Part shown: positions 4,006-5,132 of the stretch, piece by piece
Numbering within the stretch: the stretch's first letter is position 1
How the letters are laid out: every line of letters begins with the position of its first letter
DNA from: Escherichia phage PhiR29_1
Length of the DNA: 46,273 nt
Strand: one strand, 5' to 3'
Sequence record: PV340556.1
Notes under the pieces: generated by a model
Seen by the model: the letters and a program-made list of their open reading frames with translations, nothing else
Database searches by the model: none
Told to the model about the DNA's origin: nothing
Made by a program: the position numbers and the translations under genes

Positions 4006-4054
4006 TTTGCTGCTCCTCATCATATCGACCCTGCAAGGCCGATTAGTTTCTCCA

Positions 4055-4141
4055 CAAAACAGAGAAGAACACCTGTGGTGGCCGCCGCCCGGATGGATTG
4101 GGTTATGAGCCCGTCGTCCGGTGATGCTCTTCTCTGTTTTG
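4055..4141. repeat. 14-bp perfect inverted repeat (CAAAACAGAGAAGA / TCTTCTCTGTTTTG) enclosing a 59-nt GC-rich spacer; predicted long stem-loop
   Basis: Arms at 4055-4068 and 4128-4141 are exact reverse complements; lies 50 nt upstream (in minus-strand sense) of the 4005 start codon. Confidence 0.6.
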
Positions 4142-4150
4142 TAAAAAGGA

Positions 4151-4186
4151 CGGTACCAGCCGGAAGCAAGGGTACAAGCTGGTACC
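4151..4186. repeat. 9-bp inverted repeat GGTACCAGC / GCTGGTACC (stem-loop)
   Basis: Arms 4151-4159 and 4178-4186 are exact reverse complements with an 18-nt loop; part of the ORF-poor structured region 4020-4470. Confidence 0.5.
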
Positions 4187-4415
4187 GCCAGGACTACACA
4201 CAGCATAAAGTTGTGGTGCCGGGTGCCTCCCGGTGCCTGGCGAAGGTTGCACACCAGGCGGGTGGGTATCCACAGAAGGTCGACTGTCAGCCTCAACCTT
4301 AACCCGCGTGCGCTGAGCCGCATTCACCACAACGCTAAGGATTCTCTCTGGTTGAAAATACTTAGCTGTTATGTGCCTGCTTTTAGCCACATCAGGCGAG
4401 GTGGACCTGGTTATT

Positions 4416-4460
4416 CCCCAACAACAAGGATTCGGTTAATCTGGATATCCCCAACAACAA
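4416..4460 (+). repeat. Two direct copies of CCCCAACAACAA (4416-4427, 4449-4460) just upstream of the 4499 start codon
   Basis: Exact 12-mer repeated 33 bp apart; CA-rich motifs in a 5' leader may be regulator-binding or translational-enhancer elements. Confidence 0.5.
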
Positions 4461-4498
4461 TAAGAGTATTCAATGTGATCGCTGAATTAACGGCAGCA

Positions 4499-4990
4499 AT
4501 GACGGCTATTCGTGAAACAGCCCAGATTGCAAAACTAATGAACGAGGCAAAAACTCAAGCTGAAGTAAATGCGGCTATTGGTGAGCTGAACTCAAAGCTT
4601 GCGTCTATTCAGCGCGAATGCGTGTCTCTCGTTGAACTGGTGGGCTCTTATCAAGAAATAAATGCTTCTCTCAAAGCTAAAATTGCAGAATTCGAAAACT
4701 TTGAGGCTCAGACGGAAGGCTATATCCTTAACCAACTTGAGTCGGGTACTTTTGTATACTCGAAGGAGGTAATCGTGAACGGTGGCAGCATAACCATGCA
4801 TCTTTGCCCAAAATGTTTTGGACAAAAGATAGTATCGATACTTCAACCATTCCCGGTTAGCGAAGATGAGCTTTTTCATAAAAGCAGGTGCCTCCACTGT
4901 GAAAATAAGTTTCTGATGAATAAAAATCCGGATTACGTATCGCCTCCATCCATTGAGGAGTTGTCCAGAAAACTTAACGGCAATCTGTAG
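4499..4990 (+). CDS. Small coiled-coil + zinc-ribbon protein of unknown function (about 164 aa; alternative GTG start at 4475)
   Basis: Opposite orientation to the surrounding leftward operon; N-terminal heptad-like helix (IAKLMNEAKTQAEVNAAIGELNSKLASIQRE...), C-terminal CPKC...x19...CLHC; lower GC than the upstream leader; followed by a strong intrinsic terminator. Confidence 0.6.
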   Translation: MTAIRETAQIAKLMNEAKTQAEVNAAIGELNSKLASIQRECVSLVELVGSYQEINASLKAKIAEFENFEAQTEGYILNQLESGTFVYSKEVIVNGGSITMHLCPKCFGQKIVSILQPFPVSEDELFHKSRCLHCENKFLMNKNPDYVSPPSIEELSRKLNGNL

Positions 4991-5013
4991 ATTACTACTG
5001 TTGTGGATATCCA

Positions 5014-5029
5014 GATTGTTAAAGAGCTA
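5014..5029 (-). promoter_or_regulatory. boxA-like antitermination element on the leftward transcript (nutL candidate), preceded by a hairpin
   Basis: Minus strand reads AGCTCTTTAACAATC; the core GCTCTTTAACAAT matches my recollection of the E. coli rrn boxA (TGCTCTTTAACAATTTA) and resembles lambda boxA (CGCTCTTA); about 100 nt downstream of the predicted PL start. Confidence 0.45.
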
Positions 5030-5052
5030 AGCGTCCTGTAGGGCGCTTTTTT
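5030..5052 (+). terminator. Rho-independent terminator for the 4499-4990 gene
   Basis: Stem AGCGTCC/GGGCGCT (loop TGTA) followed by TTTTTT, 40 nt after the stop codon. Confidence 0.7.
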
Positions 5053-5132
5053 GTTGCTAACGAATCATCCTGGACTTCATATGCCCCAGGCGGCTACTTC
5101 GTGGGCGTCCTGCCTGTTTGTTGTTTCTCTTG

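Follow-up and report, generated by a model that had tools for sequence, protein, structure and literature searches.

A predicted Rip1-type defense gene and a structured early-left leader on opposite strands of Escherichia phage PhiR29_1

The window analyzed here is the whole 46,273-nt sequence of Escherichia phage PhiR29_1 (PV340556.1). From its early-left promoter, PL, to the first early-left gene, yfdP, the two strands carry the following features, listed in the direction of PL transcription:

Positions 5138-5165, minus strand: PL-type early-left promoter (-35 TTGACA at 5165-5160, 16-nt spacer, -10 CATAAT at 5143-5138; 11/12 matches in the promoter scan)
Positions 5029-5048, plus strand: intrinsic terminator of the rip1-like gene, followed by TTTTTTG (terminator scan)
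Positions 5015-5027, minus strand: rrn-type boxA (5027-5016) with the spacer's first base, GCUCUUUAACAAU; the inferred PL start lies about 105 nt upstream
Positions 4992-5017, no strand assigned: right arm of an ORF-bracketing inverted repeat, beginning 2 nt past the stop codon and abutting boxA
Positions 4475-4990, plus strand: predicted Rip1-family gene, 171 aa, GTG start (phmmer, profile, fold, phrog_1244)
Positions 4438-4463, no strand assigned: left arm of the inverted repeat, 26 nt, ending 12 nt before the start codon
Positions 4367-4474, plus strand: conserved leader/promoter region of rip1-family genes, about 110 nt, Shine–Dalgarno AAGAG (alignment of five loci)
Positions 4367-4404, no strand assigned: 38-bp junction element common to both modules, whose break-points overlap here
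Positions 4210-4333, minus strand: divergent STnc100/PasD-type structured RNA core (Rfam match, covariation)
Positions 4143-4189, minus strand: intrinsic terminator or sRNA 3′ end (12-bp stem 4189-4178 / 4160-4149, 17-nt loop, C, UUUUU at 4147-4143)
Positions 4054-4142, minus strand: long irregular hairpin lying past the terminator and before the ribosome-binding site of yfdP
Positions 3643-4018, minus strand: yfdP, first early-left gene, with Shine–Dalgarno GAGGAG at 4018-4013 and ATG at 4005 (ORF list; phrog_204; annotation of PhiR29_2, a phage identical to the window's)

The repeats, the ORF, the plus-strand terminator, PL and the yfdP start at 4005 fall at, or within a few bases of, where an initial annotation of this DNA had put them. 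PL is overlapped by an operator-like 19-nt direct repeat (5122-5140 / 5142-5160; repeat search), has the cI terminator just upstream (5193-5174; terminator scan), and occurs with the same sequence type in Citrobacter locus L257. Its transcription start should lie near 5131, and yfdP marks the downstream end of the PL leader. GC content is 54-58% across 3900-4400 and 39-47% in the flanks.

The 171-aa ORF runs antisense to the PL transcript. Its rip1-family homologues were antisense inside a phage operon in 13 of 13 contexts examined. This arrangement, in an early or late operon, was found in the window, HK446, HK620, F690, three Salmonella contigs and the Escherichia coli loci L265 and L266, and also in Citrobacter, Klebsiella, Edwardsiella, Lelliottia, Arsenophonus and Symbiopectobacterium. 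In the PL operons of HK446 and HK620, rip1 and hkaP, respectively, fill the antisense position that the window gene has. Because the gene is always antisense in the phage operon, derepressed PL would send RNA polymerase head-on through it; from the conserved orientation we infer that this placement would keep the gene silent while the phage itself grows lytically and makes its own terminase.

The rrn-type boxA lies on the minus strand at the entry of PL transcription into the antisense gene. Positions 5027-5016 conform to the boxA consensus UGCUCUUUAACAA; the exact match occurs once in the window, where chance would be expected to give 0.05 even when one mismatch is allowed, and no second boxA was found in the window, including the PR operon. 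The rrn boxA-spacer reads CACugcucuuuaacaauuua (PMC2724277, Table 1). On the minus strand, an A-run and the hairpin 5048-5029 stand directly 5′ of boxA, in the order of rrn boxB-boxA. The hairpin is thus dual-use, a terminator of the rip1-like gene on the plus strand and a boxA-adjacent hairpin on the minus strand. Hairpin followed by boxA, on the strand opposite the gene, recurs in all seven other boxA-bearing loci. With N absence judged from a few kb of flank and Pfam labels, boxA was present in 8/8 early-operon copies without an N gene in the flanks read, and absent from 5/5 copies in N or late-operon contexts, a pattern that does not follow protein similarity. These 13 loci share ancestry, and boxA could be a nut-like site beside which the cassette recombines.

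Like the rrn and lambdoid nut regions, the site combines a promoter-proximal position in a long untranslated transcript with a boxA identical over GCUCUUUAACAAU and, as in rrn, a hairpin immediately upstream. It differs in lacking an N gene and a recognizable boxC, in being single rather than one of a nutL/nutR pair, and in that its hairpin doubles as the terminator of a convergent gene. The segment 5048-5015 might instead be an ordinary nutL for an unrecognized phage antiterminator, beside which the rip1 cassette has recombined, with boxA unrelated to the antisense gene. We consider this unlikely but give it real weight. The annotated nutL and nutR of HK620 both begin with the same boxA 12-mer, with one mismatch; at the Salmonella locus the motif follows cro, where nutR would be; and conserved flanks at the cassette ends (4367-4404, 5005-5027) favor homologous exchange. 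However, no N-like ORF was found between PL and yfdP, the sole minus-strand ORF there being the antisense of the rip1-like gene (ORF list), and the PR operon lacks the second site. The PL region of the window is shared by SfV and e14, in which boxA is missing and a translated gene directly follows PL instead. New here are the rrn-type boxA at the point of entry into the antisense gene and the 26-nt inverted repeat around the ORF. If the boxA pattern holds up, the cassette would be a moron bringing its own anti-polarity device.

The reading frame ends with the stop at 4990 and may open at GTG 4475 (171 aa) or ATG 4499; the GTG start is favored because homologues are about 171 aa long and begin MIAEL. 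Although the initial annotation could place the protein in no family, profile and structure searches of the product, which it had called for, gave a full-length Rip1-family match by sequence, profile and fold. By phmmer, the protein matches HK446 Rip1 (PDB 9oox_L) at E=2.7e-7. A profile of 40 homologues matches Rip1 (PDB 9oox) at E=3.7e-20, aligning profile positions 5-152 with Rip1 residues 15-160 of 164, a span that takes in both the helical and the zinc-ribbon parts; identity is 27-28%. In the AlphaFold2 model (pLDDT 90.6), two long N-terminal helices (residues 2-24 and 28-79) are predicted to precede a beta-rich C-terminal Cys4 zinc ribbon. Foldseek against the PDB returned 9oox_L and 9oox_M as the sole matches at E<=0.001 (probability 1.00; target-normalized TM 0.53-0.73), making 9oox the top fold match, with no other PDB structure at E<0.1. 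The four zinc ligands (C111, C114, C139 and C142) are invariant in the 40 homologues and line up with CAQC and CHRC in Rip1. The protein also falls in phrog_1244 (E=9e-60). Pfam, NCBIfam and PADLOC offered no family, only coiled-coil noise; the PADLOC-DB version is from 2023 and probably predates the description of Rip1. Sequence and model together place the protein in the Rip1 family, a named and structurally solved one. With it, a large family of enterobacterial prophage proteins without a name, comprising phrog_1244 and 120+ clusters, all annotated "hypothetical," is assigned to this newly solved defense family.

According to a conference report, a preprint introduction and the title of PDB 9oox, HK446 Rip1 (ring-interacting pore 1) is a prophage protein that senses the small terminase and blocks incoming phages. 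These sources describe it as binding the small-terminase ring and forming a dodecameric pore-like cap, an activity known for HK446 Rip1 only; PDB 9oox is its complex with the T6 small terminase. The window protein shares with it the full-length match, the long N-terminal helices, the CxxC...CxxC zinc ribbon, prophage encoding, the antisense position in the PL operon beside the immunity region and the conserved upstream leader of about 110 nt. HK446 rip1 differs in lying downstream of N in an N-antiterminated operon, without an adjacent boxA and without the AATCTGGATATCC inverted repeat. Defense and trigger are known for the HK446 branch, whereas for the window branch, at about 27% identity, they are predicted from homology; with identity this low, the trigger could differ from that of Rip1.

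That divergence, together with the want of a Pfam, NCBIfam or PADLOC family and the annotation of HK620 hkaP merely as a putative superinfection exclusion protein, would allow the protein to be a zinc-ribbon protein of another kind rather than a terminase-sensing pore, for example a membrane exclusion factor resembling SieB or a small regulator that acts in transcription or binds DNA. We regard this as improbable, because the profile match spans both parts of the protein, no second PDB structure was matched at E<0.1, and the gene shares its leader and genomic slot with HK446 rip1 itself.

No sigma-70 promoter for the gene was recognized on the plus strand, either in the promoter scan or by eye in the conserved leader, so expression in the lysogen is drawn from the homologue. 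The earlier picture of a lysogen-expressed defense gene silenced on induction gains support from the Rip1 homology and the antisense slot. The comparison with exclusion genes of the rexAB/sieB type survives as a likeness of logic. Lambda rexAB and sieB and P22 sieB are likewise accessory genes near the immunity region that are active in the lysogen and abort superinfection; they differ from the window gene in orientation to PL and in sensing mechanism, and no relationship of sequence or fold was detected.

Alignment of the upstream regions of the window gene, the F690 Rac-like prophage, a Salmonella prophage, HK446 rip1 and HK620 hkaP gave 59 invariant columns, and the leader is kept across these loci though the proteins are just ~27% identical; further loci carry it too. 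By this alignment, the true leader of the rip1-like gene corresponds to 4367-4474 only and is conserved even in HK446 rip1. It includes the motif TGCCTG.CTTTT..CCAC.TCAGGC...GTGG at 4373-4404 and two copies of TCCCCAACAACAA at 4415 and 4448, within CCCC[A/T]ACA repeats spanning 4415-4427 and 4448-4460. A reading of the CCCCAACAACAA repeats as CsrA or Hfq (ARN) sites was dropped, as they are not conserved in HK446. The junction element at the start of the leader (4367-4404) can form two interleaved helices, GCCUG/CAGGC and CCAC/GUGG, with the topology of an H-type pseudoknot; one compensatory variant was seen, CCGC/GCGG in L260. SfV, e14 and phiES15, all without the rip1-like gene, carry the same element on the PL strand. 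The arms of the ORF-bracketing inverted repeat are 85% complementary (repeat search) and recur in L137, L259 and L262; they may reflect either pairing of 5′ and 3′ untranslated regions or a DNA-level cassette end.

The DNA between yfdP and this leader is structured beyond chance, as had been noted, but on the other strand. In a 399-nt stretch, folding relative to shuffled sequences gave z=-5.96 for the minus strand and z=-2.73 for the plus strand. G-U pairs in helices H4 and P2 (e.g., CUGGUG/CGCCAG and GCGGG/CCCGU) become A-C mismatches if the plus strand is read. Rfam STnc100 (RF02076) matched 4363-4140 on the minus strand with 42.4 bits (E=1.7e-7), against a gathering score of 47. The core has the following elements:

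Positions 4333-4325 / 4218-4210, minus strand: helix P1
Positions 4321-4309, minus strand: helix H1
Positions 4307-4303 / 4262-4258, minus strand: helix P2
Positions 4259-4252 / 4242-4235, minus strand: helix H4
Positions 4233-4219, minus strand: helix H5, the CCGGG/CCCGG hairpin
Positions 4300-4294 (AAGGUUG) with 4249-4243 (CAACCUU, in the H4 loop), minus strand: pseudoknot

Syntenic sub-threshold STnc100 matches of 29-42 bits were found in SfV, e14, ST64B, phiES15, sal3, P1 and SJ46. The initial annotation had proposed a search for compensatory changes across 4020-4470; covariation was found in this minus-strand core. For ten window-type cores, MAFFT and RNAalifold yielded P1, H1 and H5 only, the middle of the core being variable in length; H4 and the pseudoknot were therefore checked with a script that re-optimizes pairing for cross-paired controls. 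In 26 representatives, P1, H4 and the pseudoknot scored 8.1 for arms paired with their own partner versus 5.0 for cross-paired arms (Mann-Whitney p=2.6e-13), with at least 5 sequence variants of P1, at least 12 of H4 and at least 14 distinct complementary pairs for the pseudoknot. Junction nucleotides are invariant, and a peripheral arm varies freely. The 21-nt 3′ signature of the STnc100-type core is exact in the window, where the core is single-copy; the PR and late operons contain none. A second GCACATAACAG at 44628-44638 is a chance match in unrelated AT-rich DNA.

The window core thus has the 5′ GGUGAAU and 3′ CACCGGGAGGCACCCGGCACC signatures of STnc100 and PasD, their P1, H1, H4 and H5 helices, the loop-to-strand pseudoknot, the terminal intrinsic terminator and the host range of lambdoid and P1-like enterobacterial phages. 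It differs in falling below the gathering threshold, in an H1 of the GCGGCUCAGCGC type rather than CCCCC...GGGG, in the extra helix P2, and in lying inside a repressor-controlled early operon. Canonical copies are stand-alone, near Q, stx, tRNA or lysis genes, and have their own extended -10 promoter. On the minus strand, the promoter scan detected nothing upstream of 4333, and the TGTTAAAAA-type extended -10 of canonical copies is absent; the window copy is probably transcribed from PL. To the known contexts of these RNAs, we add the leaders of early operons, the ban operon of P1 and a relic in the late leader of lambda. Cores of this type recur in leaders, beside tRNA genes and in tandem.

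Association with Hfq is reported for PasD and STnc100, and a Northern blot has validated PasD. For the window core, a role as an Hfq sRNA is weakly founded, since the conserved pseudoknotted core exceeds the needs of a base-pairing sRNA. The invariant junction, covarying pseudoknot and variable arm, together with the recurrence in these several settings, suggest that it could be a ribozyme, a processing signal or a ligand of a host machine. That the PL-leader RNAs form a new class of structured phage leader elements, rather than ordinary base-pairing sRNAs, is a speculation to which we would give low odds; were it true, three separate RNA devices, the cassette-borne boxA among them, would manage host machinery around an antisense defense gene. 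We think it quite unlikely that the core is a cis-acting, put-like antiterminator RNA that replaces N and carries polymerase through the 4189-4143 terminator and later ones. Such a role would fit its position just upstream of a terminator in repressor-controlled early operons of phages without an N gene seen, and also in the P1 ban operon, and the highly conserved junction nucleotides and pseudoknot, which suggest a macromolecular binding surface. HK022 provides the precedent for RNA-only antitermination, put being likewise a structured RNA in the early-operon leader of a phage without N. However, BLAST found no similarity to the HK022 immunity region, the site of put. The window has one core of ~125 nt with a pseudoknot, compared with putL and putR of 70 nt with two stems. 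Canonical relatives are stand-alone and end at their own terminators, and PasD accumulates as discrete sRNAs, the opposite of what a self-acting antiterminator would yield.

Downstream of the core, the repeat search detected perfect 10-nt arms (4151-4160 / 4178-4187) that extend to a 12-bp stem on reading the sequence. The terminator scan had missed this hairpin because its loop exceeds 8 nt. The terminator falls within the STnc100 model match, and e14, ST64B, sal3 and phiES15 have a hairpin and U run of unrelated sequence at the same position. A weak DicF match here (15.9 bits; in e14, 28.5 bits) was set aside as generic terminator resemblance. Among the three roles once offered for the structured DNA, terminator or antiterminator structures of the leftward transcript came nearest.

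The structured block and the rip1-like gene are inherited independently, as each is found without the other, BLAST places the homology break-points of the two modules at 4190, 4404 and 4367, and folding prefers the strand opposite the gene. The block occurs without the gene in SfV, e14, ST64B, phiES15, P1 and others; conversely, O157-type, Salmonella, HK446 and other contexts have the gene but lack the block. It is therefore very unlikely that 4020-4470 is a riboregulatory 5′ UTR or ncRNA partner of the zinc-ribbon gene in one two-component defense module, as the earlier reading of a 450-bp leader had it: the two are adjacent, the plus strand also folds better than shuffles, and the PhiR29_2 GenBank record extends the rip1-like CDS upstream into the structured region, but conservation with the gene starts only at 4367, and the folding preference, Rfam match and G-U pairs all assign the structure to the minus strand. 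Another earlier suggestion, that the segment is a degraded remnant of N, is likewise unsupported: neither a minus-strand ORF nor protein similarity speaks for it, and the region is conserved as RNA structure. The structured DNA belongs to the minus strand, as the leader of the early-left transcript. We put at roughly 70% the probability that two independent things overlap on opposite strands of this locus: a Rip1-type defense cassette on the plus strand and, on the minus strand, a PL leader with boxA, an STnc100/PasD-family core and its terminator, and an initiator-tRNA-like hairpin.

In this two-strand arrangement, the plus-strand cassette would comprise the ~110-nt leader (4367-4474), the 171-aa protein and the terminator at 5029-5048. 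By homology with HK446 Rip1, the protein would be made in the lysogen, its zinc-ribbon domain would recognize the ring-shaped small terminase of a superinfecting phage, and it would assemble on the ring as a dodecameric pore-like cap, stopping the infection. When PL is derepressed in the phage's own lytic growth, head-on transcription would silence the gene. The orientation suggests a simple safety switch, in which the phage's own early or late transcription shuts off the terminase sensor when its own terminase is made. A conserved antisense slot and a conserved leader are common properties of Rip1-type genes.

On the minus strand, PL would produce an untranslated 1.1-kb leader in which the hairpin and boxA emerge ~105 nt past the start. 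Judging from sequence identity, boxA may load the host Nus complex (NusB/NusE and partners) and make polymerase Rho-resistant over 650 nt of untranslatable antisense RNA. Complexes of the rrn type counter Rho far better than intrinsic terminators, so the boxA proposal leaves passage of the 4189-4143 terminator unaccounted for. PL would then transcribe the pseudoknotted core with its intrinsic terminator, which could give rise to an early small RNA of the Hfq type and to attenuation of the genes beyond. Transcripts that read through would go on into the long initiator-tRNA-like hairpin, yfdP and the rest of the early-left operon. STnc100/PasD gains from this analysis a pseudoknotted architecture and new contexts, which bear on the role of abundant, functionally unexplained prophage RNAs.

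The arms of the long hairpin (4054-4071 / 4125-4142; repeat search) are 18 nt long and 94% complementary. The 14 nt at its tip (4113-4100), the stem-loop GGG-CUCAUAA-CCC, exactly match the anticodon stem-loop of E. coli initiator tRNA-fMet. This 14-mer is unique in the window, with 0.02 expected by chance. ARAGORN found no tRNA or tmRNA gene in the window; just the 14-nt anticodon stem-loop is copied. VapC/MvpT-type toxins of Shigella and Salmonella are anticodon-loop nucleases that cut tRNA-fMet, and the hairpin could be a decoy for such nucleases or a ligand of the 30S P site or IF3. In many enterobacterial phages, a hairpin with this tip but a different stem sequence precedes the first early-left gene; P1, SJ46 and ST64B have the loops UUCAUAU, GUCAUAU (SJ46) and CUCAUUA.

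Between PL and the early-left genes of PhiR29_1, a Rip1-type antisense defence cassette is superposed on a PL leader rich in structure. Support is good for the Rip1 assignment and for the modular anatomy; the roles given here to the boxA, the STnc100-like core, its terminator and the tRNA-like hairpin we infer. By BLAST, PhiR29_2 (PV340557.1) and a prophage of E. coli 94-3024 are both 100% identical to the query region. The immunity region is of the SfV/e14 type. Its layout is listed here together with the elements described in the initial annotation, all of which were found in the window, and with further elements that the annotation did not mention.

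To the right: cro, a YmfL-like gene and the replication genes
5879-5205, minus strand: cI (S24 peptidase)
5193-5174: cI terminator
5165-5138: PL-type promoter, TTGACA-16-CATAAT
5029-5048, plus strand: intrinsic terminator
4438-4463 / 4992-5017: 26-nt inverted repeat with core AATCTGGATATCC, tightly bracketing the rip1-like ORF
4990: end of the rip1-like ORF
4415 and 4448: duplicated TCCCCAACAACAA
4367-4404: 38-bp element common to the rip1 leader and the PL leaders of SfV, e14 and phiES15, where the gene is absent
4219-4233: CCGGG/CCCGG hairpin
4151-4160 / 4178-4187: perfect 10-nt arms
4189-4178 / 4160-4149, minus strand: 12-bp stem of an intrinsic terminator, with UUUUU at 4147-4143
4142-4054, minus strand: long hairpin, next after the terminator
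4054-4071 / 4125-4142: inverted repeat with 18-nt arms
To the left: yfdP-yfdQ-yfdR...xis-int

The 171-aa zinc-ribbon protein matched no family in Pfam, NCBIfam or PADLOC and was assigned by PHROGs to phrog_1244, of unknown function. As a single query against PDB sequences it matched 9oox chain L, "ring interacting pore 1 (Rip1)", with E=2.7e-7. A search of a large protein collection gave 123 relatives, every one annotated as hypothetical and about 171 aa long, from Escherichia, Salmonella, Citrobacter, Klebsiella, Enterobacter, Edwardsiella, Arsenophonus and other hosts. In an alignment of 40 of these, C111, C114, C139 and C142 are invariant, and the profile built from it matched Rip1 over almost the whole length (E=3.7e-20) with both CxxC pairs in register. 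The AlphaFold2 model (pLDDT 90.6) consists of two long helices followed by a beta-rich domain, and a Foldseek search of the PDB returned only 9oox_L and 9oox_M below E=0.001. The title of that entry is [quoted passage not shown], and the literature counts Rip1 among systems that sense the small terminase. The initial annotation was right in kind to propose a defence-type function, but the family, Rip1, is a known one, reached by both profile search and structure prediction. A CDS annotated at 4236-4964 of PV340557.1, corresponding to window 4262-4990 (plus strand), carries a long N-terminal extension across the minus-strand RNA core. Homologous sequences, whose N-terminus is MIAEL, indicate that the real start is the GTG at 4475 and not the annotated 4262.

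Genes of this family recur in one orientation. In HK446, rip1 (gp37) is flanked by N and the ral/cIII genes and runs antisense to PL; the same slot in HK620 is occupied by hkaP, long annotated as a putative superinfection exclusion protein. Closer homologues are likewise antisense: beside racR in a Rac-like prophage; in the PR operon of a Salmonella prophage, immediately past cro; in prophages of Citrobacter, Klebsiella and Lelliottia, where the gene and the repressor converge; downstream of an N gene in Edwardsiella; in the early-left operons of Symbiopectobacterium and of a further E. coli prophage; and inside late or lysis operons of Arsenophonus and one metagenomic phage. The gene was antisense to the surrounding operon in 13 of 13 contexts, which supports the expression logic of the initial annotation, on in the lysogen and off upon induction: the product would be made in the lysogen and the gene overrun by phage transcription during lytic growth. 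A rationale for such shut-off would be that the phage's own small terminase appears in lytic growth.

The gene travels with its own leader. By BLAST, homology to an O157-type copy is limited to window 4367-5027. An alignment of the window with the Rac-like and Salmonella copies, HK446 rip1 and HK620 hkaP has 59 invariant columns in the approximately 110 nt upstream of the gene, including TGCCTG.CTTTT..CCAC.TCAGGC...GTGG and both CCCC[A/T]ACA repeats, although the protein is only ~27% identical to those of HK446 and HK620; more loci show these conserved parts. The duplicated 12-mer thus belongs to the true leader of the gene. A promoter scan recognized no sigma-70 promoter for it. The 26-nt inverted repeat was also present around the ORF in all three other loci tested, and could either base-pair the 5′ UTR of the mRNA with its 3′ UTR or delimit a mobile cassette; its core is invariant and so offers no covariation to choose between the two. 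Within the 38-bp element two interleaved helices are possible, GCCUG/CAGGC and CCAC/GUGG, and the Edwardsiella locus L260 carries one compensatory variant, CCGC/GCGG. Read on the minus strand, the third loop would be rich in A, like those of classical H-type pseudoknots.

Where the PL transcript enters the antisense gene, GCUCUUUAACAAU (5027-5015, minus strand), an exact rrn-type boxA plus spacer, comes immediately after the rip1 terminator hairpin read as its reverse complement; the rrn boxA-spacer sequence in the literature is CACugcucuuuaacaauuua (PMC2724277). It is the one boxA match in the window, where 0.05 are expected by chance; neither a second boxA nor an N-like ORF was found there. 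Scoring hairpin plus boxA on the strand opposite the gene, 27-54 nt past its stop, divided the loci as follows.

Hairpin plus boxA downstream of rip1-family genes
Antisense in early operons, no N gene seen in the flanks read (window, L136, L137, Citrobacter L257, L259, L262, L264, E. coli L265): 8/8
N-containing or late operons (HK446, HK620, Edwardsiella L260, L263, L266): 0/5

Protein divergence is equal in the boxA-bearing and boxA-less groups. SfV and e14, which have the PL region in common with the window, have a translated gene directly after PL and no boxA. The cassette would bring about 650 nt of untranslatable RNA into the operon that it invades, and boxA would recruit the Nus complex and so prevent Rho-dependent polarity; we infer that boxA is an anti-polarity device for the antisense cassette. 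Alternatively, the cassette may simply recombine beside pre-existing nut-like sites; the annotated nutL and nutR of HK620 start with the boxA 12-mer with one mismatch.

The structured 450 bp form a module of their own on the minus strand. By BLAST, dozens of phages without the gene have this module alongside yfdP-type early-left operons, so that its inclusion in the zinc-ribbon gene's module was wrong; the slot of the gene is occupied by orf33 in SfV and by ymfJ/ymfI in e14. GC content is 54-58% over 3900-4400 and 39-47% in both flanks. The 399 nt of 4006-4404 fold much more stably than their shuffles on the minus strand (-171.7 kcal/mol, z=-5.96), with a more modest excess on the plus strand (-150.9 kcal/mol, z=-2.73). 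An Rfam E-value scan matched STnc100 (RF02076) at 4363-4140 of the minus strand with 42.4 bits (E=1.7e-7), below the gathering score of 47. SfV, e14, ST64B, phiES15 and sal3 have sub-threshold STnc100 matches in the syntenic position and in the orientation of the operon, as do phages P1 and SJ46, there within the ban operon, which C1 controls, some 40 nt upstream of tciA. In mEp460, phiNP and Stx2a_WGPS2, only the terminator and downstream hairpin were found, with no core.

When viral contigs were scanned for CACCGGGARGCACCCGGCACC, the invariant 3′ signature, at least 72 distinct cores were obtained. The cores listed have in common a 5′ GGUGAAU, two hairpins termed H1 (small) and H4, the invariant hairpin H5 (CCGGG-AGGCA-CCCGG) and helix P1, which closes the structure; their middle part varies strongly. 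Among 26 representatives, pairing is kept through many different sequences in helix P1 (GCAUGGUG/CACCAUGC, GUUGUGGUG/CACCACAAC, GUUGCGGUG/CACCGCAAC, CAGGUG/CACCUG) and in H4, which has at least 12 stem sequences. The H4 loop is complementary to the strand directly 3′ of H1 in essentially every case, through at least 14 different sequence pairs: AAGGUUG/CAACCUU in the window, AAGGCUGG/UCAGCCUU in phiES15, UGGUUAU/AUAACCA in the phage P1 type, UGGUUAGU/GCUAACCA in locus L127, and AUCAGC/GCUGAU and CUGGUG/CACCAG in canonical copies. When each 5′ strand was paired with the loops of other sequences as a control, re-optimizing the pairing, own partners scored 8.1 versus 5.0 for cross pairs (Mann-Whitney p=2.6e-13), which makes the fold a pseudoknotted one. 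The core belongs to the minus strand, as its G-U pairs in H4 and P2 show. MAFFT and RNAalifold alone recovered helix P1, H1 and H5 and nothing more.

Canonical STnc100-type copies are stand-alone units, each with a terminator of its own and, about 8 nt ahead of helix P1, a conserved motif of the TGTTAAAAA type that resembles an extended -10. They are sometimes in tandem, as with three in 2.7 kb of L060 (5114-7875), and are often located after a tR'-like terminator or a tRNA gene, or immediately before a tRNA gene; in two cases in L128 (777-1500) the cores lie 13-16 nt upstream of tRNA genes. This context fits reports of PasD, which is abundant, and STnc100 as Hfq-associated prophage RNAs of unknown function. 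Unlike these, the window copy is single and lacks the extended -10 promoter, and would be made from PL. The late leader of lambda, just after tR' (L135, 44790-44870; 491-569 of the locus), keeps AACAGGTAAGAGCATT...TGCTCTTTCCGTTGTGCTGAAT, the same hairpin-plus-core-start order as in phage P1, and then a degenerate ACCGGAAGCAGAACCGGATCACC; the stretch looks like a relic of an STnc100-type unit. The ban operon leader of phage P1 (L005, 1215-1316) has a region annotated as dicF-like and tRNA genes upstream of its hairpin-plus-core unit, and the e14 copy has a weak DicF match on its terminator (28.5 bits).

Downstream of the core, the position of the terminator at 4189-4143 is filled in e14, ST64B, sal3 and phiES15 by a different hairpin plus U run, which argues for function over mere descent. 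The apical stem-loop of the long hairpin at 4142-4054, CGGGCUCAUAACCC (4113-4100, minus strand), exactly reproduces 14 nt of the E. coli initiator tRNA-fMet anticodon stem-loop, with its three G-C pairs as well as the anticodon CAU; the tRNA-fMet sequence itself was found at 100% identity, annotated as tRNA-Met, in 5426 of 5426 genomes. The 14-mer occurs once in the window, where 0.02 occurrences are expected by chance. Many enterobacterial phages have a hairpin with the same tip, and with outer stems that co-vary, ahead of the first early-left gene (YfdP-like, RdgC-like and others), and GGG-[U/G/C]UCAU[AU][AU]-CCC is retained in phage P1 (ban operon), SJ46 and ST64B. The hairpin (AACAG-GUAAGAGCAU...UGCUCUUUCC) lies directly 5′ of the core in phage P1 and of an apparent core relic in the lambda late leader, just after tR'. 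Candidate roles for the 4142-4054 hairpin are an RNase III processing site, as exists in the lambda N leader, and a tRNA-fMet mimic; as pure speculation, its tip might bind the P site or IF3, or act as a decoy for nucleases of the VapC/MvpT type that cut the tRNA-fMet anticodon.

In the right operon of SfV (L001, 5543-5731) isrK and C4 antisense RNA match with 64 and 82 bits, and isrK is also present in ST64B; although the window has the left-operon leader in common with SfV, it contains neither RNA at Rfam gathering thresholds. Elsewhere in the window, IS009 (RF02111) has a full-length Rfam match at 40146-40344 (plus strand) with 229.5 bits against a gathering score of 117.
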